DNA from: Nitrospirota bacterium
Lineage (GTDB): Bacteria > Nitrospirota > Thermodesulfovibrionia > Thermodesulfovibrionales > Dissulfurispiraceae
Length of the DNA: 64,000 nt
Direction: 5' to 3'
NCBI GenBank assembly: GCA_963790025.1
Contig: CAWBMP010000004.1
Span: forward strand, 960,001 to 1,024,000
Shown here: piece by piece, positions 17,558 to 54,671 of the stretch
Layout of the letters: each line of letters begins with the position of its first letter
Numbering within the stretch: position 1 is the first letter of the stretch
The notes under the pieces: generated by a model
Databases searched by the model: none
What the model saw: the letters and a program-made list of their open reading frames with translations, nothing else
What the model was told of the DNA's origin: nothing
Program-made: the position numbers and the translations under genes

Positions 17558-19025
17558 ACTAAAAATAAAGGAGGGAATATGACACCAAAAGATGTACTGA
17601 AGATGGCGCAGGAAAACAAGGCTGTAATGGCAAACTTCAAGTTTCTTGATTATCCCGGGATATGGCAGCACTTTGGAGCACCAATCTCGGAATTAACGGA
17701 GGATGTATTTGAGAGCGGACTGGGTTTTGACGGCTCCTCGATAAGGGGCTGGCAGGCTATACATACGTCTGATATGCTGATAATTCCGGACCCATCCACG
17801 GCCTTTATCGACCCCTTCATGGAATACCCGACCATAAGCCTCATCTGCAATATCATGGACCCGATCACCAAAGAGTTTTATACAAGAGACCCCCGCTATA
17901 TTGCTCAAAAGGCGGAGGCCTATTTGAAATCTACCGGGATTGGTGATACGGCGTATTTCGGTCCTGAGGCAGAGTTCTTTATTTTTGACGACATCATGTT
18001 CGACCAGAACTCACACAGCGGCTATTATTTCATCGATTCAGTTGAAGGTATCTGGAATTCGGGCCGTGATGAAAAGCCGAACCTCGGCTATAAGCCAAGG
18101 CATAAAGAAGGCTATTTCCCTGTTCCTCCAACCGACAGTCTCGTCAACCTGAGAACAGAGATGGTCATGGAAATGCTGAAATGCGGCATCTATGTGGAAA
18201 AAGAACACCATGAAGTGGCCACTGCGGGGCAGGCCGAGATAGATATGAGATTTGAGTCCCTGCTCAAGATGGCGGACAATCTCATGCTCTTCAAATACAT
18301 AATCAAGAATGTCGCAAAGAGGCATAACAAGACAGTTACATTCATGCCGAAGCCCCTTTTCGGCGACAACGGTTCGGGGATGCATACACACCAGAGCATA
18401 TGGAAAAACGGAAAGCCTGTTTTTGCAGGCAATGGCTATGCAGGCCTTAGCGAAACAGCACTCTACTACATCGGCGGCATACTGAAGCACGCAAAATCCC
18501 TGGCAGCCATTACCAATCCAACAACCAATTCATACAAAAGATTGACCCCGGGCTTTGAAGCGCCGGTGAACCTTGCCTACTCTGCAAGAAACCGTTCGGC
18601 TGGAGTCAGGATACCAACTTACTCTCCAAGCCCGAAAGCAAAGAGGGCAGAAGTAAGGTTCCCTGACCCCTCATGTAATGGCTATCTTGCCTTTGCAGCC
18701 ATGCTGATGGCAGGACTTGACGGCATCGAAAATAAGATACATCCGGGCGAGCCGCTCGATAAAGATATTTACGAACTCGGCCCCGAAGAGCTTGCATCGG
18801 TGCCGACCATGCCTGGAAGCCTCGAGGAGGCCCTCGGCAACCTTGAAGAAGACCACGATTACCTGAGGAAAGGCGATGTCTTTACCGAAGACGCACTGGA
18901 AACGTGGATAAGCTACAAGAGGTCAAAAGAAGTGGATGCCCTACGACTGAGGCCGCACCCTTATGAGTTTTTCCTGTATTACGATATTTAAGATACTCTT
19001 TACATAATGACAAAAAAAGGGGGAC
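17558..19025 (+). repeat. About 1.47 kb direct repeat, copy 1 (RBS + glnA + start of terminator)
   Basis: Matches 23936-25403 at constant offset 6378; one substitution seen. Confidence 0.95.
17579..18991 (+). CDS. glnA: Glutamine synthetase type I, copy 1
   Basis: [30 protein letters not shown], adenylylation loop DIYEL. Confidence 0.98.
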
Positions 19026-23935: not shown

Positions 23936-25403
23936 ACTAAAAATAAAGGAGGGAATATGACACCAAAAGATGTACTGAAGATGGCGCAGGAAAACAAGGC
24001 TGTAATGGCAAACTTCAAGTTTCTTGATTATCCCGGGATATGGCAGCACTTTGGAGCACCAATCTCGGAATTAACGGAGGATGTATTTGAGAGCGGACTG
24101 GGTTTTGACGGCTCCTCGATAAGGGGCTGGCAGGCTATACATACGTCTGATATGCTGATAATTCCGGACCCATCCACGGCCTTTATCGACCCCTTCATGG
24201 AATACCCGACCATAAGCCTCATCTGCAATATCATGGACCCGATCACCAAAGAGTTTTATACAAGAGACCCCCGCTATATTGCTCAAAAGGCGGAGGCCTA
24301 TTTGAAATCTACCGGGATTGGTGATACGGCGTATTTCGGTCCTGAGGCAGAGTTCTTTATTTTTGACGACATCATGTTCGACCAGAACTCACACAGCGGC
24401 TATTATTTCATCGATTCAGTTGAAGGTATCTGGAATTCGGGCCGTGATGAAAAGCCGAACCTCGGCTATAAGCCAAGGCATAAAGAAGGCTATTTCCCTG
24501 TTCCTCCAACCGACAGTCTCGTCAACCTGAGAACAGAGATGGTCATGGAAATGCTGAAATGCGGCATCTATGTGGAAAAAGAACACCATGAAGTGGCCAC
24601 TGCGGGGCAGGCCGAGATAGATATGAGATTTGAGTCCCTGCTCAAGATGGCGGACAATCTCATGCTCTTCAAATACATAATCAAGAATGTCGCAAAGAGG
24701 CATAACAAGACAGTTACATTCATGCCGAAGCCCCTTTTCGGCGACAACGGTTCGGGGATGCATACACACCAGAGCATATGGAAAAACGGAAAGCCTGTTT
24801 TTGCAGGCAATGGCTATGCAGGCCTTAGCGAAACAGCACTCTACTACATCGGCGGCATACTGAAGCACGCAAAATCCCTGGCAGCCATTACCAATCCAAC
24901 AACCAATTCATACAAAAGATTGACCCCGGGCTTTGAAGCGCCGGTGAACCTTGCCTACTCTGCAAGAAACCGTTCGGCTGGAGTCAGGATACCAACTTAC
25001 TCTCCAAGCCCGAAAGCAAAGAGGGCAGAAGTAAGGTTCCCTGACCCCTCATGTAATGGCTATCTTGCCTTTGCAGCCATGCTGATGGCAGGACTTGACG
25101 GCATCGAAAATAAGATACATCCGGGCGAGCCGCTCGATAAAGATATTTACGAACTCGGCCCCGAAGAGCTTGCATCGGTGCCGACCATGCCTGGAAGCCT
25201 CGAGGAGGCCCTCGGCAACCTCGAAGAAGACCACGATTACCTGAGGAAAGGCGATGTCTTTACCGAAGACGCACTGGAAACGTGGATAAGCTACAAGAGG
25301 TCAAAAGAAGTGGATGCCCTACGACTGAGGCCGCACCCTTATGAGTTTTTCCTGTATTACGATATTTAAGATACTCTTTACATAATGACAAAAAAAGGGG
25401 GAC
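23936..25403 (+). repeat. About 1.47 kb direct repeat, copy 2
   Basis: Matches 17558-19025. Confidence 0.95.
23957..25369 (+). CDS. glnA: Glutamine synthetase type I, copy 2
   Basis: Translation identical to copy 1. Confidence 0.98.
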
Positions 25404-37899: not shown

Positions 37900-39534
37900 T
37901 TAGTACATTCCTTCCATACCGCCGCCGCCAGGCATCGGAGGCATCTTTTTGTCCTCCTCAGGCAACTCGGTAATCATTACTTCCGTAGTAAGCATCAAGC
38001 CGGCCACTGACGATGCATTCTGCAGTGCGGATCTGGTGACCTTTGTAGGATCGATGATGCCCGCCTTGATCATATCGACAAATTCCTCCTTGTATGCATC
38101 GTATCCGTAATTTACATCTTTCGAAGCCTTCACCTTTTCAACGATAACAGCACTCTCGATGCCGGCATTCTGAATTATTTGCTTTATCGGCTCTTCAAGC
38201 GCCTTCTTGACTATACTCACGCCAAGCTGCTGGTCATGGTCCAGCTTCATCTTATCCAGCGCCTTCATGCACCTGATAAGGGCAACACCTCCGCCAGGCA
38301 CAATACCTTCTTCAACTGCCGCCCTCGTTGCATGGAGAGCGTCTTCAACTCTGGCCTTTTTCTCTTTCATTTCAGATTCGGTCGCGGCACCGACGTTAAT
38401 AACTGCTACGCCCCCGACCAGTTTCGCAAGCCGCTCCTGAAGTTTTTCCCTGTCGTAGTCAGAAGTGGTCTCATCAACCTGGGTCTTGATCTGTTTTACC
38501 CTGCCCTGAATCTGCGCTTCGTTGCCCGCGCCCTCGACAATCGTGGTATTTTCCTTATCGATGGTGATTTTGCGGGCCCTGCCCAAATCATTGATCTTTA
38601 CGTTTTCGAGTTTAAGTCCGAGGTCCTCGGAAATGACTGTACCGCCGGTCAGAATGGCGATATCTTCGAGCATTGCCTTTCTTCTGTCTCCAAAACCCGG
38701 GGCCTTCACCGCCGCAACCTGAAGGGTCCCGCGCAATTTGTTCACAACGAGTGTTGCAAGTGCCTCTCCCTCGACTTCTTCGGAAATGATGACAAGTGGC
38801 TTGCCCATTTTTGCGATCTGTTCAAGAATGGGAAGGAGGTCTTTCATGGTCGAAATCTTTTTGTCGTGCAGAAGAATGAAGGCATCATCAAGTGCACACT
38901 CCATCCTGTCGGGATCGGTGATAAAGTACGGGGAAATATATCCCCTGTCAAACTGCATTCCCTCTACCACGTCCAGGGTCGTTGCCATCCCCTTAGCTTC
39001 TTCAACCGTAATAACGCCGTCTTTGCCGACCTTGTCCATCGCCTCGGCAATCAATTCGCCGACCGAAGGATCACTATTGGCAGAGATGGTGCCTACCTGG
39101 GCAATTTCCTTCTTCTCGGCAACAGGCCTGCTCATTGTTTTTAATTCTTCCACCACGGTTTCGACTGCTCTGTCGATTCCCCGCTTCAGGTCGATGGAAT
39201 TGGCGCCTGCGGTCACATGCCTCATGCCCTCTTTGTAAATAGCATAAGCGAGCACGGTCGCGGTTGTTGTCCCGTCACCTGCCACATCAGAGGTTTTGGA
39301 AGCGACCTCTCTCAGGAGCTGGGCGCCCATATTCTCGTAAGGGTCTTTCAGCTCGATTTCCTTTGCAACGGTAACGCCGTCCTTGGTTATATTCGGCGCA
39401 CCGAATTTCCTGTCTATAATAACATTCCTTCCCCTAGGGCCTAGAGTCGCCTTGACTGCGTCTGTAAGTATGGTCACGCCCTTTAAAATCGTCTGTCTTG
39501 CCGCTTCGTCAAACAGAAGTTGTTTTGCCGCCAT
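37900..39534 (-). CDS. groL: Chaperonin GroEL
   Basis: [23 protein letters not shown], Gly/Met-rich tail. Confidence 0.99.
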
Positions 39535-39557
39535 AATGTTCAGTCCTCCTTTTTTTC

Positions 39558-39821
39558 TTACTCAATTATTCCTAAAAGATCTTCTTCTTTTACGATGAGA
39601 TATTCAACGTTGTCGATCTTGATTTTCGATCCCGAATACTTGTCGAAAAGCACCTGATTTCCGGCTTTCACTTCCTTCACTTCAGAGCCGACTGCATCCA
39701 CCGTTCCCTTTTGGGGTTTCTCCTTTGCAACATCGGGAACATAAATGCCCCCCGCTGTCTTTTCGATGTCCTCTTCTGAATACCTGATGACTACTTTGTC
39801 CTTAAGTGGCTTAATCTTCAT
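39558..39821 (-). CDS. groS: Co-chaperonin GroES
   Basis: [22 protein letters not shown]. Confidence 0.98.
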
Positions 39822-39906
39822 ACCGAACTAACCTCCTTCTAAAAGTAATTTTCAATCCTTAACGGAAAAACCGTTTAAGGTAATGATTGATATTGATGGC
39901 CCATTA

Positions 39907-39933
39907 TTAGCACTCATCACCATTGAGTGCTAA
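39907..39933. promoter_or_regulatory. CIRCE element (HrcA operator)
   Basis: Perfect TTAGCACTC-N9-GAGTGCTAA upstream of groES. Confidence 0.97.
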
Positions 39934-40052
39934 TAATAACGCGAAAACGAGGGTAGTTGCAAGGCTTCACAAGAACAAATATAGCCTACCAGAGATAAAT
40001 ATTAGTGATTTTTAGCTATTTTCTACGATTTCTAGCTCTTTTCTAACAAAAT

Positions 40053-40715
40053 CTATCTTTTTTGCGGCAACCACAACTTTATTGTGCCCAGGCCTGCCAG
40101 AAAGCCGCCTACGTGAGCAAACCATGCAACCCCGCCATGTTGAAGAGAGCCGGCACTAAGGAGTCCGCTGATGACCTGCAGCAGTATCCAAAAACCGATG
40201 ACAAAAACTGCGGGGATTCGAACAACTTGCCAGAAAAATCCAAAGAAAAGAAGGGTATGCACCTTTGCTCTAGGGAAAAGCAGGATGTAGGCGCCCAATA
40301 TGCCTGATATTGCACCACTGGCGCCGATCATGGGCATCATCGATTTGGGATCAGTCAGCGCATACGCATATACCGCGACAATACCTGAAAATAGGTAAAA
40401 CAATAAAAACATGAAGTGGCCGAGCTCATCTTCAATATTATCGCCAAATATCCACAGGAAAAGCATATTCCCCGCTACATGCAAAAAACCGCCATGAAGG
40501 AACATGGAGGTAAATATACTTTCAAGCGGAGACACCTGCTGTGCGCTGTGAAAAGTAATAAGGTTATGAGGTATGGCCCCATAGAGCAAGGCAATCTGCT
40601 CACCCTCAACTGGGGTCATCATTTCCCAGAGAAACACTATAATATTGGCAATAATCAGCCCCACGGTGACGAATGGAAAAGTGCGGGACGGATTATCTAC
40701 TTTAAAGGGAATCAT
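40053..40715 (-). CDS. Rhomboid intramembrane serine protease
   Basis: MFLHGG..H..GNM, GASGA, AHVGG. Confidence 0.93.
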   Translation of the reverse strand: MIPFKVDNPSRTFPFVTVGLIIANIIVFLWEMMTPVEGEQIALLYGAIPHNLITFHSAQQVSPLESIFTSMFLHGGFLHVAGNMLFLWIFGDNIEDELGHFMFLLFYLFSGIVAVYAYALTDPKSMMPMIGASGAISGILGAYILLFPRAKVHTLLFFGFFWQVVRIPAVFVIGFWILLQVISGLLSAGSLQHGGVAWFAHVGGFLAGLGTIKLWLPQKR

Positions 40716-40966
40716 TTATGCACCATAATTTGATTAGTTTGCTTCTGTAACTTACTCATATTTAAGTTATATTGTATTCTGTCTTGATTGCTTTTGTAAA
40801 AGTTCATCCCTCCGTGACAATTATGAATCAGGGCACGCAAGCCTTGGGAATGTCAAAAAAGCAAAAATTTTTTAGGTGTGTGGAAGCCTGGAATAGTAAA
40901 TGAACCACGCTCCGGGTTGTAACCGGGAGCGTGGCTCATTTATTGTTTGGGTCAAGAGCAGCGCGG

Positions 40967-41266
40967 TCAGCAGAAGAATGTTTGCAGTTTTCCCCTGAGT
41001 CCTTTTGCGGTTTGCAGAAGTGTTGTCGACATCTTCCTTATCGTCGCCAGGCCACAAGTAATGACGTCTTTGGTCGTCACTTCCCAGCCCTCTTTAATTT
41101 TTCCCGATATCAATCTCAAAATTTTCGCTATGGCTTCATGGAAACGTTCGATGAGTTTCTCCAGAAGGTAAGCGATATAAACTTCTATGGCGAGAGCTGC
41201 AAAGCTTGCCAACTCCTGATGATGATTACGGAAATCTTTTACAAGCTGCTCTATTAAATGATTCAT
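40967..41266 (-). CDS. Hypothetical helical protein
   Basis: Strong SD AAAGGAGG, last gene of cassette, followed by hairpin at about 40905-40935. Confidence 0.6.
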   Translation of the reverse strand: MNHLIEQLVKDFRNHHQELASFAALAIEVYIAYLLEKLIERFHEAIAKILRLISGKIKEGWEVTTKDVITCGLATIRKMSTTLLQTAKGLRGKLQTFFC

Positions 41267-41276
41267 AGTTCCTCCT

Positions 41277-42044
41277 TTAAATATTGAAAGTGGCGCTTAC
41301 CGGGCAGTGGTCTGAAACAGTTGACCAGTAGTTATAATCATCTTCGTGGCTTTTGCAGTCCAGGCGGCAGGCCCCTCCAACGGACACACCTTTAAAATGC
41401 GGGACAAGGGCAGGAGAAACAAGGATATGGTCAACCCTGCTTCCGTACTTCTCGGTCATGGTGTAAGCATCTCCAGCAGTAGCCAGCACAAATCTGGTAG
41501 CCTTTACAAAAGACTTGAGTTCCTCAAGGTTCTCGCCTCGACCACTAAAGCAGTTCATGTCGCCCAGGAGCAGCATGCGCTTATCGGCGGCAAGCTCTTT
41601 AATTATCCTGGTGAGCACTTTCCACTGCATCCTTCTTGTGTTCATATCCTTTTTCTTCTTTCCGGACTTCAGGTGGACGACAAGGACTTCAAAAAGAAGA
41701 CCTGTCTCAGTGAATTCAAATTCACCAAGCAGCGCAGGTCTTACTCTTCTGCCAACATCCACCTCGTCGTACGTTTTGAAACCAAGAGATTTCACGCGTA
41801 AGCCGTTGTAGAGCAGGCCGACCTTCTGGCTTGGATACTTCGTGGCAACAAATTTCCACTCTTCGCCGAGGAAATAAGTCGCATCCTTCTGAAAAAGACC
41901 GGGGTCCGTGATTTCCTGAACACCTGCAACGTCACATCCCTCCATCTCGCTGAAAAGGGCCATGTTGTCTTTTTCATAGCCCGCCTTTCCAAACCACTCT
42001 ATATTTAGAGTGGTTACTGTAAGTCCTTCTGTTTTTTTCTCCAT
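41277..42044 (-). CDS. Endonuclease/exonuclease/phosphatase (EEP) family protein
   Basis: TLNIEWF, VQEI, VHLKSG, GDMN, DHILV, SDHCPV; no signal peptide. Confidence 0.9.
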   Translation of the reverse strand: MEKKTEGLTVTTLNIEWFGKAGYEKDNMALFSEMEGCDVAGVQEITDPGLFQKDATYFLGEEWKFVATKYPSQKVGLLYNGLRVKSLGFKTYDEVDVGRRVRPALLGEFEFTETGLLFEVLVVHLKSGKKKKDMNTRRMQWKVLTRIIKELAADKRMLLLGDMNCFSGRGENLEELKSFVKATRFVLATAGDAYTMTEKYGSRVDHILVSPALVPHFKGVSVGGACRLDCKSHEDDYNYWSTVSDHCPVSATFNI

Positions 42045-42065
42045 TTCTTCTCCTTTTTTGGGCAC

Positions 42066-42104
42066 AAAAAAGCCGGTGATCCGTATAACCGATACCAGCC
42101 CTTT
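42066..42104 (-). terminator. Terminator/attenuator directly before the RBS of the EEP gene
   Basis: Minus strand GGCTGGT...ACCGGC-TTTTTTGTG then AAAAGGAG. Confidence 0.7.
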
Positions 42105-42144
42105 AGGGGTTATTTGTCTGAGGCGAAAATTCTAACTGCGGATT

Positions 42145-43119
42145 TTAGTGAGGCAGGGCTACTGTAAAGAAAACAAAGGCGTGGTCCGATGCGAAGACCT
42201 TTTCCTCAACTTCAGAAAAGCGTTCGAAGTCAAAGGGGACTGTGTTCCCATCCTCGAAAACAGCCGTTCCGCTACCCTTGGGCAATCCTCTTCTCTCGAT
42301 ATAAGGGATTCCTCTGCTGCTCTTCGAAAGAGCCGGGCTAAGTAGTATGTAGTCGAAATGCGTGACGATGTGGTGTGCGGTCCAGTAATGTGTCCACCGT
42401 TCATACTCCGGCAGCCGTGCAATAACGTCTTCCATCCCAAGTTCAAAAAGTGGCTGGAGCGCCGATGAATCCGGAGTGTCGTTAAGGTCACCAGCCACAA
42501 CAAAGGCAGCCGATTCAAATAACTCATCAGGAAACCGGCCCTTAATGATCTCTGCAACTCGTTCAGCCTGCATTCTTCTTTTGACACAAGCAGCCTCTTT
42601 CTCGTCATCTGTTCTTCCTGAACGGGATTTGAAGTGGTTAGCAAAAATCGTGAGCGGGGCGCCGTTGACATCCAGGGTTATCTCCAAACAATCCCTGCTG
42701 AAGAGGTATTCTCCATGCTCGGTTCTCTCATCTTTGTGGCTCCTCACGCTTACAACAGGAAACATACTCATAACGCCGACATTCACCAGCCGCTCATAGT
42801 GTCCGGCAACAAGCATGGTATATTGATACGCATCATCCAGGAAACTTTTATTGAAAACATCAAGCGCCGCCATGCTTTCAACTTCCTGAAGTATTACCAC
42901 GTCCGGCAAACTGCCGTTGCCGCATTTCAGAGCTAACGCCGCAAGCTCTCGAGATTCCGGATGACTCAGAATTTGACTGTCGTCCGTGGCGGCAGGAAGA
43001 TACCTGTAATCTTTGGGCACCTCCTCATAATGAAATTGACCGGGTGCCTTAAACCCTGTTTTGTACAGCACAAACATGTTATGCATATTGGCAGTGCAGA
43101 CCGTTACGGTTTTCATCAT
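42145..43119 (-). CDS. EEP family protein
   Basis: TANMHN, LQEVE, SRDCLE, NHFKS, GDLND, DYILLS, SDH. Confidence 0.9.
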   Translation of the reverse strand: MMKTVTVCTANMHNMFVLYKTGFKAPGQFHYEEVPKDYRYLPAATDDSQILSHPESRELAALALKCGNGSLPDVVILQEVESMAALDVFNKSFLDDAYQYTMLVAGHYERLVNVGVMSMFPVVSVRSHKDERTEHGEYLFSRDCLEITLDVNGAPLTIFANHFKSRSGRTDDEKEAACVKRRMQAERVAEIIKGRFPDELFESAAFVVAGDLNDTPDSSALQPLFELGMEDVIARLPEYERWTHYWTAHHIVTHFDYILLSPALSKSSRGIPYIERRGLPKGSGTAVFEDGNTVPFDFERFSEVEEKVFASDHAFVFFTVALPH

Positions 43120-43131
43120 TTCCTCCTTTCA

Positions 43132-44151
43132 TTAATTGCTGCGCTCAGACTCTGCTGATGCTCTTTCAAAAGCGGCGTCAGTCATTGAGCCTATGTAGTC
43201 CGCAACCATCCTTTTGATTGATGTGGTTGAAATGTAGCCCCTGTCCATTGCTTTGACCCATCGGCCAATGTCCGAGTCCATTCCCCTGCGAAGCTGTTCG
43301 CAACATGAATAAAAAAGGAATCGGAAACTGCTTTCCCGTTTCTTCCTCAACTGTTCAGATGCCGCATAGGAATATATGGCCCGGTAATTAAACGCGAGCA
43401 ATCCCTCAATCGCCTTAAACACCCTTTTCGAAAAAGCGACCATGGAGCTGCTGCTCTGTCTGACCAAGTCATCAATCAGGATGTCCCTGATAGAAGCTTC
43501 CGTATCGCCAAGCACACAAGCGATTTGATCAGGTATATCGCCCCGGGTTATGAGGCCCACTGCAATGGCGTCCTCGATGTCACGGCCTAAATAGGCAATG
43601 ACATCAGAGGCGCGCACTATGCAGCCCTCGAGAGTCATCGGCATAATCAGAGTGCTGTAGTGCGCCACTTTAAAACAGCTATTGAGTTCTGTTTCGAAAC
43701 ATGTCCAGGTCTTGCGGTAATTGGGGACATACTGTCTGCGTAACATCTCGCCGTTGTGGCAGAGGATTCCATCCAGCACCGGCAGCGACAACTCCAGTCC
43801 GTTTTCAAGCACCGTGAGTATCCTTGCGCTCTGGGCGTTATGGGCAAAGAATCCGCAGCCCGACTCCATGCACAGGGCATTCAGATATGCCTCTCCTTCG
43901 TGACCATATGGCGTATGCCCCAGGTCGTGACCAAGTGCGATTGCCTCGGTGAGATATTCGTCACACCTTAATAAACGGGCTATCCAGCGGGCCACGTGAC
44001 TGACGAGTTGCACATGTAGCCACCTCCGGGTGATTCCATCTCCTGCTCCCGCCTGAAACGCCTGGGTCTTGTCATACCGGGCATACGCTTTTGACCCAAT
44101 AATCACCCCGCTTTCCTTAAAATAGTCGGCTCCGGCCTGCATTGTTTTCAT
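43132..44151 (-). CDS. HD-domain dNTP triphosphohydrolase (dGTPase-like), divergent N-terminus
   Basis: KTQAF, GHDLGHTPYGHEGE, HNAQS, SDVIAY..RDIEDA, DYIGSMTD. Confidence 0.88.
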   Translation of the reverse strand: MKTMQAGADYFKESGVIIGSKAYARYDKTQAFQAGAGDGITRRWLHVQLVSHVARWIARLLRCDEYLTEAIALGHDLGHTPYGHEGEAYLNALCMESGCGFFAHNAQSARILTVLENGLELSLPVLDGILCHNGEMLRRQYVPNYRKTWTCFETELNSCFKVAHYSTLIMPMTLEGCIVRASDVIAYLGRDIEDAIAVGLITRGDIPDQIACVLGDTEASIRDILIDDLVRQSSSSMVAFSKRVFKAIEGLLAFNYRAIYSYAASEQLRKKRESSFRFLFYSCCEQLRRGMDSDIGRWVKAMDRGYISTTSIKRMVADYIGSMTDAAFERASAESERSN

Positions 44152-44175
44152 ACTCTTCGTTCCTCCTTTTCAAAC

Positions 44176-44217
44176 AAAAAAAAGGCTGATGCCCTAACGT
44201 TCGGGCAGTCAGCCTTT
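44176..44217 (-). terminator. Terminator/attenuator directly before the RBS of the dNTPase gene
   Basis: Minus AAAGGCTGACTGCCC-GAACGTTA-GGGCATCAGCC-T8-GTTTG-AAAAGGAGG. Confidence 0.85.
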
Positions 44218-44241
44218 CTTTAAATGGCTATTACTCTTTGC

Positions 44242-44409
44242 CTATACTTTGCTAAGGATCCACCCTAGCCTCTTCCGGTCCGATTCAGGCAACGTTGAAA
44301 GTGCCCGTATTACGAGCCAAGGCTTCTCTTTTATCAGTGCTTCTATCCTTTTATAGCTGCTCGTGCCGGTAGTTCCCTTGTCTCTTGCTATGTGTCTGCC
44401 GCCGTTCAT
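44242..44409 (-). CDS. Small basic hypothetical protein (55 aa)
   Basis: SD AAGGAGG with normal spacing; lies between two terminators. Confidence 0.5.
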   Translation of the reverse strand: MNGGRHIARDKGTTGTSSYKRIEALIKEKPWLVIRALSTLPESDRKRLGWILSKV

Positions 44410-44429
44410 TGTGCACCTCCTTTTCAAAC

Positions 44430-44478
44430 AAAAAAGGCGGCCGGCTTTTCACTCCGAAGGAGCTACTTGCCGGCCGCC
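44430..44478 (-). terminator. Terminator/attenuator directly before RBS
   Basis: Minus GGCGGCCGGC...GCCGGCCGCC-T6-GTTTG-AAAAGGAGG. Confidence 0.85.
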
Positions 44479-44504
44479 ATGATTGCTGCAATTAAGAAGT
44501 TATG

Positions 44505-44816
44505 TTACTGCGGTGATATCCCGCTGCGTACCATATGTAACCGAGTTTTGCCGTCACATATGTCCATGGCAGCGATAAGCATGGAAAGTACTCTTTCTGT
44601 TGCAAGCTGAAGTTCCTTTTCAGACCACTCGGGGTGGGCAGCTTTGTTGGCCCTATAAACTTCCATGAAGTTGTAAGACTTTTTGATCGTGTTGCAATTA
44701 ACGCGGATGGAAGAGTTAATCGCCCCTCCTGTCGCCACGTTATCCCCGGCAACTGCAAGACCTGCCGGTATTAAGGCTAAAGCTAAAGCAATTGCGAGAC
44801 TGTAATGTGTTTTCAT
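44505..44816 (-). CDS. Small exported hypothetical protein
   Basis: SD AAGGAGG; signal peptide MKTHYSLAIALALALIPAGLAVA; two Cys. Confidence 0.65.
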   Translation of the reverse strand: MKTHYSLAIALALALIPAGLAVAGDNVATGGAINSSIRVNCNTIKKSYNFMEVYRANKAAHPEWSEKELQLATERVLSMLIAAMDICDGKTRLHMVRSGISPQ

Positions 44817-44862
44817 AACTTCCTCCTTAGGGCTTGCGAATAAATAACTTGCCCTTAAAAAC

Positions 44863-44908
44863 AAAAAAAGGCACAGCCCCTTCCAATGGTTGGGAGACTG
44901 TGCTCTTT
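44863..44908 (-). terminator. Leader terminator/attenuator upstream of first cassette gene
   Basis: Minus GCACAGTCTC..GGGGCTGTGC-C-T7-G. Confidence 0.75.
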
Positions 44909-45753
44909 CTGTGTTGCCTAATTTTTAACTTATTGTTTTTCGCAAAAAATATTTAAGCGGCAGGATAAAAATTCTCCAATACTGTTTTTTTGAGATGATG
45001 TTGATATGTCGCTTGAGGAGTAGATTGATCCAAGGTTGATATAAAACCTTTTGGAAATCAATCAAAAAAAACTTTATGAAAATTGTCGTTAGATTCGTCA
45101 GTGAAGGTTATTTCTAAAAATACTATAATAATAAAGGGCTGCCTTGTAAATAAAAAAGGGACATTAACAGTGAAACCAATTGAAATGTCTATGAATTACG
45201 TTTGATAAAAACTACGCTCCCCCCATTTGCCCCAAGATGGCGGAAGAAACTCGTAAAAACAAAGAGATACTCTTTAAAAGAACCTTCAAAAACAAAAGAA
45301 CTCTTAAAAGAATAAAACGAAAATATTTATTCATACATAATCGGTATATAATTTCACTCATTCCCAATTACTTTTCAATGTGTTCACAGTTTCCCAGTAA
45401 CTCTCTAGTCATGACTATAGTCACCTGTTGACTTACTAATCAGTCATTACTCCAGTCACCCTTCTTCTGCCTTTTGGTAGTGTTGAAAGGTTAGAGGTTA
45501 GACAACCTCAAACCTTTCAACTTGCTATCAATAAGAAAGCTACATGCTAACAAAAAAGCGTCTTCCTTACTGCTGAAAGCATATTGCTATCGAAAGTAAT
45601 ATCTATTTACGTACAGCATACAGCGTTCAGTGTTCAGCGTACTCCGTTGCAAACAAGACAGTTAATTATTGCAGTTTCAGTCGGTTAGAGCTTTTTAACT
45701 GTACGCCGAACACAGTACGGTGAACATGTTACGCAAAAGGGGGGTAGAGTATT

Positions 45754-46737
45754 ATGAAGATAGGAATTGATGTAGGATACGGGTATACCAAGGTCGTCAC
45801 AACGCATTCCTCAATTATCTTTCCATCCCGTGTGGGTCCTGCCAGGGAGTTGTCGTACTCGCTCAAAGAAGGCACTGACGTTATGGGAGAAACTGTCGAA
45901 TATGAGGGCGAACGATATTTTGTAGGGGAGAAGGCAAGACATAGCGATGTTACCTACACCCTCATGACAAGAGGCTGGATCGAGAGCAAGATGTATGGGG
46001 CATTGCTTACTTCGGCCCTTACCAGGGCAATGAACGGCAGATATGCTTTAGCTGACCCTGAAGAAATAATTATTGTCACCGGCCTTCCCGTAGATTATAT
46101 GAGAGATAAAACCAAAGCCGAAGAGAGCCTCGGAAAGGCGTGCGATGGGATTGGCCTCCGTATCACAGGCATCAATATAATACCGCAGCCTTTCGGCTCT
46201 TTTTTTGACATGTTTTACGATAATAACGGTGATATTGCCGGCAGCGCACCTTTCTTAAAAAGGATTGGGATAGTCGATATCGGTTATCACACCACGGATT
46301 ATATTCTTATCGAGGAGGCTCAACGCAATATCGAGAAGGCCTCTGGCAGCGTTCCTACTGGGGCCCATGAGATATACGATATTGTAGCCAGAGAATTAAA
46401 GAACATGTTCGACAGAGATACAGTTACTGCGGAAGAGGCCGAGCACTGCGTTAAAACCAAACATTATAAAGTCTCGGGTCAAAACAAAGATATGGGTACC
46501 CTGGTTGGCCGAGTGCTGTCACAAGTGGGGCAAAAGATAACTGGTATTGTTAAATCTAAATGGAACCTTGAAGGAGAAATTGACATTGTCCTGCTAACCG
46601 GAGGCGGAGCTGCGCTTATTCAGCCGCACATCTCATCTATAGCGCATACTCACTTCCTGATAAATGAACCCCAGATGGCCAATGCGCGAGGATATTATAA
46701 GAGGAGCGTCATCCTGGAACGAAAAATTAAAGGTTAG
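45754..46737 (+). CDS. ParM/StbA-family actin-like ATPase
   Basis: GIDVGYGYTK, TGLP, PQP, DIGYHTTD, LTGGGA, ANARGY. Confidence 0.9.
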   Translation: MKIGIDVGYGYTKVVTTHSSIIFPSRVGPARELSYSLKEGTDVMGETVEYEGERYFVGEKARHSDVTYTLMTRGWIESKMYGALLTSALTRAMNGRYALADPEEIIIVTGLPVDYMRDKTKAEESLGKACDGIGLRITGINIIPQPFGSFFDMFYDNNGDIAGSAPFLKRIGIVDIGYHTTDYILIEEAQRNIEKASGSVPTGAHEIYDIVARELKNMFDRDTVTAEEAEHCVKTKHYKVSGQNKDMGTLVGRVLSQVGQKITGIVKSKWNLEGEIDIVLLTGGGAALIQPHISSIAHTHFLINEPQMANARGYYKRSVILERKIKG

Positions 46738-46752
46738 CGGAGACATGGGCGG

Positions 46753-47049
46753 ATGGAAAAAACAGCAATATGCTTCATACGATTGTACCCTGATAATCCG
46801 GAGGATGCCCTTATTATTGCCGGCCTCGGCACAAGAAAAAGAAAAGGGGAGAAATCCAGGGTCATAAAAGACATACTTTATGCTCATTTCAGAAATAAGA
46901 AGAGCAGTCTCCCGGAACCGCCAACCGAATCACGCAAGGGGATTAAAGGACCATCGTCTCAGCTCCATCCGAAAAGCACTGCGCTGTCGGATGATGAAAA
47001 AGTGACATTAAAAAAGAACCTCGACGAACTTTCAGATATGCTTATGTAG
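46753..47049 (+). CDS. Putative ParR-like adaptor
   Basis: Small basic gene right after the ParM-like gene; RHH-like N-terminus, Pro-rich linker, acidic C-terminal helix. Confidence 0.6.
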   Translation: MEKTAICFIRLYPDNPEDALIIAGLGTRKRKGEKSRVIKDILYAHFRNKKSSLPEPPTESRKGIKGPSSQLHPKSTALSDDEKVTLKKNLDELSDMLM

Positions 47050-51359: not shown

Positions 51360-54300
51360 TCATTTATCATGAAACTGACCTGATGTCAAACACCCTGTTC
51401 CTGCACGCACCCGTTTGCCGGTGATTATCCTTGACGCATTGCTTTCAAGTGTATCTATCCTACCCTCAAATGCTGCATTAGCCAAAATCGTGGTTGTCCT
51501 CTGAAATGCTGCCGACGCAAGAAAACTTTTTGAGTACAGCGGTATCTGACTGATGCCGAGGAGCACGGGAGTCGCTGTCGGAGGCTTCAAGCCTCTTCGC
51601 CGGGTCCTGTCACACTCATCTTCAAATTCGCTCTTATGAATAATATCACCTGTCAGAAACCTTGCCCCCCGGCTGTCTGTAACTTTCACAAATCCGGTCA
51701 TCTGGCTAAGTATTATTTCAAAATGCTTGTCATGTATTACCACTCCCTGTTTGCGGTATATCTTCTGGGCTTCATCGAGTAAATATTTCCACACTGCTCC
51801 GCCACCTGCAGCATGCAACAGATCATGGGGGTTGACTGCACCGTCAATGTTACTGAGCTCCGCCGCTCTGCGCGGCCTTCTTGCTTCAAGAAGGTCAATA
51901 ACCTCCGGAAGCCCGCCGGTTATGTCCATGGGAGTGACAACTGCTCCACCGGTATGAAATGTTCGCAGGGTAAGCTGGGTCCCGGGCTCACCTATGGACT
52001 GAGCTGCGATAATACCCACCGCGTCCCCTGTCTCTGCGGGCCTGCGGCTGCCGACATTGAATCCGTAGCAGCGCGCACAAACGCCGCGTTGCGCCTTGCA
52101 GGTAAGCACAGACCGCACTTTGACCTTTTCTATTTTTGCCTTGCTGATTTTTGCCGCTGTCGCTTTATCCAAAACGGTGCCATACGATACGAGCACAGTG
52201 CAGGAGTCTATGTCCAGAACGTTATCTGCCAATGCCCTGCCGGTTATTCTCTCCTCCAGAGAAATTTCTACTGTACCGCCGTTCTTCAGCGGTCCAAGGT
52301 AAATGCCTTCGAGCGTCCCGCAATCATCCGTAGTTACGATGAGGTCACGCGCAGCACTCACCAGCCTTCTCGTAAAATAGCCCGCCGCCGGCGTCTTCAT
52401 GGGGCCATCCACCCTGCCCTTTCGCGCCCCGTGCGTGGAAAGAAAAAACTGGAATGCACTTAACCCTTCTCTGAAATTCGATGTAATCGGCATTTCTACA
52501 ATTTCACCCGTGGGCTTGGCCATCAAACCCCTCATGCCGTTTATTTGGCGTATCTGGTTGAAGTCGCCTCTCGCGCCAGAATCACACATCATAAAAAGGG
52601 CATTGGATTCTACATGCCGGTCTTCTTTTAATACGCGCATCGCTTCAGATGTTATCCTGTCGGTTGCTCTCGTCCATACGTCGATTTCCTTATTATGCCT
52701 TTCGTTGTCAGACATCAAACCGGTTTCATAATGGCTCCTCACCTCCGCTGCTTCCTCCTCTGCCTCAGCAACAATGGCCGCCTTTTCGGAAGGGACGAGC
52801 ATGTCATCAAGACAAAGCGATATGCCCGACAACGTCGCATATTTAAACCCAATGCCTTTTATCTCATCCAGAAACCTGATCGTCTCCCTGACGCCGCACT
52901 TTTCATAGCACAACTCGATTAAGCCGGCAAGTTCCTTTTTATTTAAGACTTTATTTATTACCGCGAAGGGTATACCTGCTGGAGTTATGGCATAGAACAG
53001 CACCCTTCCAGCCGTTGTTCTTACCAAGGCGCCATCTATTCTGACCTGAATGCTGGAATGTTCTTCTACAATATTGTTTGCATATGCAATACACACCTCG
53101 TCCACATCCGAGAAAAGCATTCCTTCCCCTTTTCCCCTTTTTCCCGATTTCCCATCGCTGGTCAAATAATAAATACCCAGGACAATGTCCTGAGACGGCA
53201 ATAAAGCAGGCCTGCCGTTGGCCGGATGGAATAAATTGTTAGTGGACATCATGAGGACCCTCGCCTCTATCTGTGCTTCAAGTGAGAGAGGCACATGCAC
53301 TGCAATGGTATCTCCGTCAAAATCGGCATTGAAGCCCGAACACACAAGAGGATGGAGCCTTATTGCAGCGCCTTCAACAAGGACAGGATCAAAGGCTTGC
53401 ATGCTTAATTTATGCAAAGTCGGCGCCCGGTTTATTATGACTGGATGCTCGGCAATTATATCATCGAGGGCGTCCCAGACTTCTGGTTTCTCTTTTTCAA
53501 AAAGCCGCTTTGCCTGTTTCAGCCTTGGGGCAAACCCATTTTTAATAAGCCACCGGTATATAAATGGCCTGAAAAGCTCAAGTGCCATTGCCTTCGGAAT
53601 GCCGACCTGATGGATTTTCAATTCCGGCCCTATAGTAATATGTGCCCTTCCGGAATAGTCGACCCTTTTGGCAAGAAGATTATGTCTGAATATTCCACTC
53701 TTAGAGCTTATCATCTCTGAGAGCGATTTAAGCGGCCTTTTTTGAGACCGGTTTTTGACGGCAACATTCCTGCCATTGTCGAGCAGGCTGTCAACTGCGG
53801 CCTGAAGAAGCCTTTTTGCATTCTGAAGTATTATTTCTGGAGCGCCGAGGTGAATAAGTCTTCGCAAGCTTTGATTTTTGTAAATGACCTTGCTATAAAG
53901 CAGATTAAGATCGGAGGCAACAGTAGTCCCGGCGTCAGGAAAAATTATGGGGCGCAGGTCAGGGGGCAATACAGGCAGCATGTCTAAAATCATCCACTCC
54001 GGTTTGTTTCCGGACTTCAGGAGTTTCTCGATCAAAGAGAGTCTGCTTCTTTTTCTCAGGGATAACGTGCCATTCTCTTTAAGTCCCTTCGGAATGGCAT
54101 CCAGGTCAAGGCCTGTAAGTAGTTTCCTGATCGCTTCCGCACCGGTTTCAACATGGAAATGATCGCATGAAGTCCGGTATTTTCTGTACTCTTCATGTGT
54201 AATTGTCTGGTTCTGTTTGAGACCGCTGTCGCCCGGATCAATTACAACATAAAATTCGTATTGCACGATTTTTTGGACCTGCCGGGGAGGCAGTCCCAGT

Positions 54301-54671
54301 ATCCTTGCAAGAACGCTTTTAGGCCCTTTGTAATACCAGATGTGCGCAACAGGCGCAGCGAGAGTTATGTGGCCGAGTCTTTTTCTTCTCTCTTCCGGTT
54401 CCAGCAGCCCCGTACCGCAAGTCTTACATGAGGCTGCTCCACCGTTATCTGTGCCACAAGAACATTTACCCTTTCTTACCGGGCCGAATATTCCTTCGCA
54501 GAATAACCCATTTTTTACCGGGCCGCCATTTTTTAAACTGAATGTTTCCGGCGAAGACACCTCGCCATAAGATAATAAACTCTTCCCGAGGGGACTTAAA
54601 AGACCGATTCTAAGAGAATCAAATGCCTGATTATCGATCATAGGTTGTTGGCTGCAGGGACATGCCTCCAT
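51360..54671 (-). CDS. rpoC: Orphan divergent RNA polymerase beta-prime paralog (1103 aa; start uncertain)
   Basis: GLFCEGIFGP, PVLPPDLRP, KRVDYSGR, NRAPTLH, NADFDGD, SGARG, GEPGTQLTLRTFH, DITGGLP, DKHFE, AGTG. Confidence 0.95.
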   Translation of the reverse strand: MEACPCSQQPMIDNQAFDSLRIGLLSPLGKSLLSYGEVSSPETFSLKNGGPVKNGLFCEGIFGPVRKGKCSCGTDNGGAASCKTCGTGLLEPEERRKRLGHITLAAPVAHIWYYKGPKSVLARILGLPPRQVQKIVQYEFYVVIDPGDSGLKQNQTITHEEYRKYRTSCDHFHVETGAEAIRKLLTGLDLDAIPKGLKENGTLSLRKRSRLSLIEKLLKSGNKPEWMILDMLPVLPPDLRPIIFPDAGTTVASDLNLLYSKVIYKNQSLRRLIHLGAPEIILQNAKRLLQAAVDSLLDNGRNVAVKNRSQKRPLKSLSEMISSKSGIFRHNLLAKRVDYSGRAHITIGPELKIHQVGIPKAMALELFRPFIYRWLIKNGFAPRLKQAKRLFEKEKPEVWDALDDIIAEHPVIINRAPTLHKLSMQAFDPVLVEGAAIRLHPLVCSGFNADFDGDTIAVHVPLSLEAQIEARVLMMSTNNLFHPANGRPALLPSQDIVLGIYYLTSDGKSGKRGKGEGMLFSDVDEVCIAYANNIVEEHSSIQVRIDGALVRTTAGRVLFYAITPAGIPFAVINKVLNKKELAGLIELCYEKCGVRETIRFLDEIKGIGFKYATLSGISLCLDDMLVPSEKAAIVAEAEEEAAEVRSHYETGLMSDNERHNKEIDVWTRATDRITSEAMRVLKEDRHVESNALFMMCDSGARGDFNQIRQINGMRGLMAKPTGEIVEMPITSNFREGLSAFQFFLSTHGARKGRVDGPMKTPAAGYFTRRLVSAARDLIVTTDDCGTLEGIYLGPLKNGGTVEISLEERITGRALADNVLDIDSCTVLVSYGTVLDKATAAKISKAKIEKVKVRSVLTCKAQRGVCARCYGFNVGSRRPAETGDAVGIIAAQSIGEPGTQLTLRTFHTGGAVVTPMDITGGLPEVIDLLEARRPRRAAELSNIDGAVNPHDLLHAAGGGAVWKYLLDEAQKIYRKQGVVIHDKHFEIILSQMTGFVKVTDSRGARFLTGDIIHKSEFEDECDRTRRRGLKPPTATPVLLGISQIPLYSKSFLASAAFQRTTTILANAAFEGRIDTLESNASRIITGKRVRAGTGCLTSGQFHDK

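Follow-up and report, generated by a model that had tools for sequence, protein, structure and literature searches.

Several strong intrinsic terminators lying right before ribosome-binding sites (RBSs) are the hallmark of processive antitermination systems, of which to our knowledge only a handful are known (lambda N/Q, put, EAR, LoaP/RfaH and conAn). In RfaH/ops, LoaP and put/EAR a leader-encoded signal licenses the read-through of downstream termination sites. Here, we analyse a locus with this hallmark in a 64,000-nt stretch of DNA (the window, in whose coordinates all positions are given) from the 3.45-Mb, 5-contig assembly of an uncultured member of the Nitrospirota. It comprises six co-directional minus-strand open reading frames (ORFs; g1 to g6) between a rhomboid gene (40053–40715) and a divergent ParM-like gene (45754–46737), together with four hairpin + U-tract elements (T1 to T4) that each precede an RBS. 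The products of g3, g4 and g5 are a dGTP triphosphohydrolase-like HD protein and two endonuclease/exonuclease/phosphatase (EEP) proteins. Our leading but tentative interpretation, to which we give slightly less than an even chance, is that the cassette is one operon in which serial attenuators, reached from a single promoter, keep the HD and nuclease genes low, expression resting on a basal leak that is possibly boosted under certain conditions.

Known operons offer several points of comparison. The conjugation operon of pLS20 in Bacillus subtilis has a single promoter, a long leader and an intrinsic terminator 0–26 bp before the first Shine–Dalgarno sequence (SD) (PMC13401043, PMC8191782). 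Its small first genes encode antitermination parts, 6–20 terminators are internal and a long-stem element stands at the end (PMC13401043), and the ConAn1 protein is listed as Pfam PF17362 (PMC8191782). In type III toxin–antitoxin systems such as ToxIN a terminator stands before the potentially harmful gene and fixes how much of the product behind it is made relative to the one ahead of it (PMC3401426), and intra-operonic terminators are presented as regulatory targets in PMC11005410.

The folding energy of each element in the window was compared with those of 200 shuffles. T1 (44857–44912), which lies in the leader before g1, reaches −25.4 kcal/mol (z −4.33), T2 (44426–44478) before g2 −32.7 kcal/mol (z −5.51) and T3 (44172–44221) before g3 −27.1 kcal/mol (z −6.36), and in none of these three cases was a single shuffle as stable. 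T4 (42066–42104), situated before g5, is weak (−16.1 kcal/mol, z −1.23, 26 of the 200 shuffles as stable), its stem being not significantly more stable than shuffled sequence. On the sense (minus) strand the U-tracts stand right 3' of the stems and read U7GU5, U6GU3, U8GU3 and U6 for T1 to T4; their first U is 53, 26, 32 and 27 nt, respectively, from the next start codon, and every start behind an element has an SD of the AAGGAG(G) type. The gap from U-tract to SD measures 0–10 nt at T2 to T4, and at T2 and T3 the U-tract merges directly into the SD of g2 and of g3. An earlier note on this DNA had claimed four hairpin + U-tract elements, each before a strong SD; this holds for the placement of all four and for the folds of T1 to T3, whereas the fold of T4 falls short. 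From stems and U-tracts we infer that T1 to T3 would indeed terminate transcription, and any efficiency of termination is deduced from the sequence as well. Among the four elements a simple terminator scan of 9 kb flagged only T1 and T3, and with 15 terminator-like sites against 10.0 ± 3.8 expected it revealed no enrichment. T2 and T3 have an exact 20-mer in common (44416–44435 and 44162–44181), which the earlier note had pointed out and which has no third copy in the 3.45-Mb genome. Every hairpin of the window is single-copy in its genome. The stems were described as unrelated, and within the window they are, but hairpins homologous to T2 and T4 are present in related genomes.

Across the cassette there is only one sigma70-like site on the sense strand, P1 (45150–45122; TTTACA-17-TATAGT), which is also the best promoter-like match in 38000–47000 (10/12) and lies about 210 nt upstream of T1. 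Both of its hexamers are conserved in those relatives whose contigs reach that far, and so are the approximately 140–190 nt that follow. The leader between P1 and T1 (44913–45115) contains one conserved hairpin (GAUUGAU...AUCAAUC), and its segment from about −40 to +140 is 76–85% identical to six relatives, compared with 69–74% for the coding sequence of g2 and 63–72% for that of the HD gene. The claim that hairpins and RBSs leave no room for promoters between them is borne out, as is the view of the six genes as a single co-directional unit. Since one conserved promoter stands upstream and the hairpin positions are conserved across nine species (see below), expression of the genes requires that terminators are read through. 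To judge from the sequence, such read-through is built into the design of this operon.

The leader gave few hints of a particular RNA structure. Its fold reaches a z of only −1.86, the changes in the conserved hairpin are compatible with G-U pairing and show no convincing covariation, and an Rfam search of 40500–45800 gave no match; at E <= 5 there was one snoRNA match outside the elements, which was judged to be a chance match. Inspection by eye revealed no conserved leader stretch that is complementary to a hairpin arm, and a candidate in the leader of the window (CCTGCCGC) was dropped because it is not conserved in relatives. A tandem antitoxin repeat array was not detected by TRF in 44913–45115. 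The sole array nearby (45244–45312) is located just upstream of P1, consists of 2.2 copies of a 30-nt unit (GTTCTTTTAA-type repeats) and is kept in relatives; it may serve as a regulator site or UP-type site for P1.

Synteny of the cassette extends to eight other species of the same Dissulfurispiraceae genus (loci L013 to L019 and L021), with the conserved order P1, leader, (g1), (g0), g2, HD, X, g6, where g0 is a 50–53-aa membrane peptide and X a nuclease gene described below. Each of the nine loci contains 4–7 sense-strand hairpin + U-tract elements in the leader and in the spacers before RBSs, the window having the fewest. The sequence of T1 is conserved in 6 of the 9 loci, and a hairpin of the type of T2 (family A) with its U-tract stands before (g0)g2 in all nine. 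At the junction from g2 to the HD gene a hairpin + U-tract is present in 8 of the 9 loci; only L014 is without it, apparently having lost T3 by a deletion between short repeats. The stems at this position are of four unrelated kinds, namely one unique to the window, one unique to L013, one common to L015, L017 and L019, and family A in L016, L018 and L021, and they are followed throughout by the conserved tail UUUUUUGUUUG(A/G)AAAGGAG. This means that the shared 20-mer is not a chance match; it reflects a conserved and reused tail of U-tract and RBS. That the same junction keeps a hairpin and U-tract despite four unrelated stems argues for selection on structure and not on sequence. Further downstream, the spacer between the HD gene and the nuclease gene X of the relatives contains two tandem elements (families B and C), and an element precedes g6 in 7 of the 8 relatives, those of L013 and L014 being homologous to T4. 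In families C/C' 87.6% of the pairing is kept, with weak controls (40–51 of 500 shuffles reach the observed values). The number of elements also varies, as L014 lacks T3, the window lacks those flanking the slot of X and L018 has two fewer, a pattern more in line with elements that tune expression than with a gate that is either open or shut.

Family A comprises 17 copies in the nine loci, all of them in sense orientation. In its alignment 94.5% of the cells are paired and two pairs have changed in a compensatory manner, values that are reached by 3–4 of 500 shuffles. The internal loops (AAGUA and GUGAAAAAG) and an apical mini-hairpin are conserved. A covariance model of the family, with which 61 genomes of the bacterial family were searched, gave matches above 60 bits only in this genus (6 genomes) and only inside this locus; weaker matches elsewhere resemble generic GC-rich hairpins and fall on both strands. 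Metagenome contigs and viral contigs gave no match to the family-A pattern. A canonical U-tract immediately 3' of the stem is found in 13 of the 17 copies and in all other intergenic hairpins, and the four copies without it are those standing after g6 in four loci, whereas the internal copies have perfect U-tracts. In L018 the hairpin before g1 shows, by eye, the same loop motifs as family A on different stems. The loops, the end copies devoid of a U-tract and the L018 variant hint at a role beyond plain termination. The 5' arm of the family (GGCGGCAG) presumably resembles the ops core. Intergenic hairpins such as REP/BIME palindromes are able to attenuate transcription or to stabilise mRNA, and dispersed REP-like repeats were ruled out here by the single-copy nature of each window hairpin. 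An interpretation as integron attC sites was dropped by eye, with no integrase nearby and core-site motifs unmatched.

How unusual the arrangement is within its own genome was seen in a genome-wide scan for units of a terminator followed within 60 nt by a codirectional SD and start. There are 61 such units with a hairpin of dG <= −9 and 15 with dG <= −15. Three of these 15 lie within 700 bp at this cassette (T4 failed the scan), and at dG <= −15 no second place in the genome has two units within 5 kb. Twelve other sites were checked and have hairpins of −11.4 to −29.7 kcal/mol with a U-tract 18–58 nt before the starts of ordinary genes, among them fliR-flhB, L31-DUF1385, asd-DEAD-box helicase, SMC-RRM protein and SWIB-Smr. 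The hairpin at fliR-flhB (genome G000, contig C4:99887–101758, L039), of −29.7 kcal/mol and with U7, stands directly after fliR and 18 nt before the flhB start; judging by its sequence, an operon for flagellar export is here interrupted by a strong terminator-like element. Units before ordinary genes suggest that read-through of such elements appears to be routine in this organism, and the argument that a lack of promoter room calls for antitermination would equally apply to the genes at these 12 sites.

The first gene of the cassette, g1 (44505–44816), encodes 103 aa with, by eye, a hydrophobic signal-like N-terminal segment. It has a 62% identical copy in L018 (genome G005), and six relatives retain merely its RBS and last codons. 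The second, g2 (44242–44409), encodes an orphan protein of 55 aa that is present in all nine loci. Its 26 relatives (55–66 aa) all belong to Dissulfurispiraceae/Nitrospirae and none is named, so that g2 is restricted to this lineage, and no other locus in the searched genome contigs encodes it; one extra search match (L030) was due to chance and lies inside a glycosyltransferase-like ORF. The AF2 model of g2 has four short helices (pLDDT 74), and a Foldseek comparison with PDB returned nothing at E <= 0.001. The last gene, g6 (40967–41266), encodes a helical protein of 99 aa with no assigned family; tblastn detected it in 8 of 8 relatives at 37–63% identity (in L018 residues 1–57 only), and the protein atlas had no usable match. 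Pfam (E <= 0.01), NCBIfam and PHROGs gave no family for g1, g2 or g6. After g6 follows a long terminal hairpin (40901–40938; −29.3 kcal/mol, z −9.02) without a good U-tract.

The HD protein g3 (43132–44151, 339 aa) contains Pfam domains HD and HD_assoc and matches the PADLOC dGTPase model with 142.7 bits (E 4.7e-42). In NCBIfam it reaches 87.5 bits for antiphage_dGTPase, whose cut-off is 400, and it remains below cut-off also for the housekeeping dGTPase equivalogs; the other dGTPase-like gene of the same genome is 36% identical. Of the other genomes of the genus, 8 of 9 encode an orthologue of g3 with 53–72% identity; the remaining one is 74% complete. Beyond the genus the search gave dGTPase-like matches of housekeeping type and, apart from these, just one stand-alone copy (L020 in G034, 50–52% identity), which lies beside a hemB-like gene and has no hairpin series. 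Directly behind g3, with no hairpin between them, lies g4 (42145–43116), an EEP protein (PF03372, 3.9e-10), and T4 separates it from the second EEP protein g5 (41277–42044, 255 aa; PF03372, 4.2e-08). The metal-binding HD motif of g3 (ALGHDLGHTPYGH) and the catalytic motifs of the EEP proteins are readable directly in the sequence. In place of g4 and g5 all eight relatives have gene X, a 371-aa PLD-like nuclease with two HKD motifs that matches NCBIfam DrmC at 7.8e-24 and also NucT. In L019 and L021 the PLD gene is followed by what by eye is the remnant of an EEP-like 3' end (of g5). In some species the operon extends further: downstream of g6, L018 (G005) has a further 321-aa ORF and another unit of family-A hairpin, U-tract and RBS, and L014 (G006) has approximately 5 kb of extra genes between g6 and the rhomboid gene.

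The search for a factor that could override the terminators gave no known candidate. Neither ConAn1 (PF17362) nor a phage N/Q or NusG-paralog gene was detected in the locus when g1, g2 and g6 were compared with Pfam, NCBIfam and PHROGs, and the two NusG-family (PF02357) matches of the genome are both on contig C2, none of them in or beside the cassette. The second NusG-family gene (163 aa; G000 contig C2:653048–653329, L043 8839–9330, minus strand) is directly upstream of a sugar-epimerase-like ORF starting MTTILVTGAAGFIG and of further biosynthesis-sized ORFs, surroundings in which specialised NusG paralogs are typically encountered. The earlier note had stated that no antiterminator gene is visible; this is correct in so far as no known family was matched, but it overlooks the conserved leader of about 190 nt and the 55-aa g2 present in every copy as candidates. 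Its stronger claim, that the genes can be expressed only under processive antitermination, is not supported, given that no known factor was found, that ordinary genes share the arrangement and that L014 has lost T3.

The earlier note had also speculated about a link with the beta-prime (rpoC) paralog in the neighbourhood (51360–54671, minus strand, 1103 aa), which matches rpoC_TIGR with 1262 bits and is shorter than the canonical rpoC of contig C2, with which it shares 47–49% identity. In this view the paralog would build a terminator-resistant polymerase that reads the cassette. It is a real gene and lies near the cassette in G003, G006, G007 and G009, and among the nine cassette-bearing genomes of the genus it is intact in five (G000, G001, G003, G006 and G009). 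Copies of at least 73% identity were found only in the genus, and one genome of another genus, G018, has a copy with 59% identity. However, the copy in G007 is split, that in G004 is interrupted by a TAG stop and by changes of frame, and none was found in G002 (98% complete) and G005 (81% complete), although cassette and hairpins are retained in each of these four genomes. As an obligatory partner it therefore fails, and we consider its involvement highly improbable.

In the attenuation reading that we favour, P1 alone would drive the operon through the conserved leader, and by default most transcripts would stop within the leader or once g1 and g2, the small proximal genes, have been transcribed, so that output of the dGTPase-like HD enzyme and of the nucleases (two EEP proteins here, the PLD-like one in relatives) would drop steeply. 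The hairpins would in addition shield the proximal messages at their 3' ends. Distal genes would be expressed by read-through, for which a basal leak would be enough in principle, and a conditional boost of read-through is plausible. We infer that the purpose would be the restraint of potentially harmful nucleases. Several observations weigh against this reading. If each of the 4–7 serial canonical terminators were efficient, very little distal transcript would arise by passive leak, which favours a switch; leader and T2 family show more conservation than plain terminators would call for; the copies of family A at the end of the operon have no U-tract while the U-tracts of the internal copies are perfect, which is odd if termination is the sole role; and the housekeeping terminator–RBS units elsewhere in the genome are single and never serial. 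The main rival is dedicated and self-contained processive antitermination, in which the leader RNA and/or g2, possibly acting at the family-A hairpin, would modify the RNA polymerase started at P1 so that it ignores the terminators. Functionally this would be like conAn of pLS20, the put/EAR RNAs and lambda N, and the architecture parallels that of pLS20 (PMC13401043). A leader that is better conserved between species (76–85%) than the HD coding sequence (63–72%), the occurrence of g2 in nine of nine loci and nowhere else, the confinement of family A to this locus, and as many as seven terminators in series ahead of conserved, intact genes would all be accounted for. We nevertheless rate this mechanism as rather unlikely, since g1, g2 and g6 have no ConAn1, N/Q or NusG-like domain, covariation in the leader is scant (z −1.86, no Rfam match), g2 has no structural match, single hairpins are dispensable (L014, L018 and the window) with the operon kept, and ordinary genes of the genome are preceded by terminator–RBS units too. 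It is a still bolder and, in our opinion, unlikely proposal that leader, family A and g2 constitute a previously unknown, self-contained terminator-override module that licenses a dGTPase-plus-nuclease cassette only on a signal such as phage attack; if true, Nitrospirota would have a novel type of processive antitermination or of terminator recognition.

The hairpins could also act mainly after transcription, as 3'-end stabilisers, processing sites or sites of a locus-specific RNA-binding protein, giving messages of differing stability with termination as a secondary effect. This would suit the internal loops and the apical mini-hairpin that family A retains, its occurrence without a U-tract after g6 in four loci and, by eye, the loop motifs that the pre-g1 hairpin of L018 shares on other stems. 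But stability elements do not need the U-tracts found in 13 of 17 family-A copies and in all other intergenic hairpins, and we regard this explanation as quite unlikely. Improbable, finally, is an absence of regulatory logic, be it that each gene is transcribed on its own from a promoter that escaped recognition or that the hairpins are neutral leftovers from the shuffling of cassettes. The hairpins are kept at the same junctions in nine species while their stems turn over, all copies lie on the sense strand, and the 0–10 nt from U-tract to SD at T2 to T4 speak against separate units as well, even if promoter rules in Nitrospirota are poorly known and the gene content is mosaic (g1, g0, EEP and PLD genes are present in some loci and absent from others, and deleted genes have left 3' remnants).

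The surroundings of the cassette are partly conserved: in the relatives ParM adjoins it in five, the rhomboid gene lies downstream in four and groESL beyond the rhomboid gene in three. Between parM and P1 (45400–45610) the sequence GGTGACT-N6-ATGACT occurs twice, 35 nt apart (45460–45442 and 45425–45407), and is conserved in relatives, as are two GATAGCAA boxes at 45591 and 45529 upstream of the ParM-like gene. The latter is followed by a 98-aa ORF (46753–47049), and repeats, ParM and this ORF together resemble a parMRC-type set on the chromosome that includes a parC-like site. Far from the cassette, two plus-strand ORFs of 470 aa (17579–18991 and 23957–25369) are equal in length, have matching internal antisense ORFs and are each followed by a GGGGAC...GTCCCC hairpin; they are probably two copies of one insertion sequence.

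What makes this locus worthy of attention is that the hallmark of antitermination is encountered in a small, genus-conserved chromosomal operon of uncultured Nitrospirota in which no known factors were matched. If read-through is regulated, a new override mechanism could be studied here within a compact 4 kb; if it is passive, the operon is a clean natural case of multi-step attenuation with a steep expression gradient before nucleotide- and DNA-degrading enzymes. Moreover, a dGTPase-like HD protein combined with a swappable PLD or EEP nuclease is a candidate defence module outside any known system. In a comparison with the anti-phage dGTPases that act in nucleotide-depletion defence, g3 matches the PADLOC dGTPase model (4.7e-42) but is below the curated cut-off, and this protein of putative function never occurs in the cassette unaccompanied by a nuclease and by small orphan proteins.

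At the level of RNA, the repeated intergenic hairpins recall REP/BIME palindromes, from which family A differs by having one copy in the genome of the window and strong matches in the genus only at this locus. As in type III toxin–antitoxin systems, a terminator precedes a potentially harmful gene and would act as a level-setter, but here there is no ToxN-like toxin, and 4–7 serial elements stand in place of one. From the systems based on NusG paralogs (RfaH/LoaP) the locus is set apart by the position of the one NusG paralog of this genome on another contig. The conAn system of pLS20, finally, has a ConAn1 domain and conjugation genes, in contrast with a 4-kb chromosomal operon of Nitrospirota that has neither and in which antitermination is hypothetical. 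With this system the present operon nevertheless shares its single promoter and long leader, the terminator ahead of the first SD, the small genes at the front, the terminators in the interior and a special long-stem element at the end, T1 and T2 standing before the first genes and T3 and T4 being internal in the window, with up to seven elements in its relatives.

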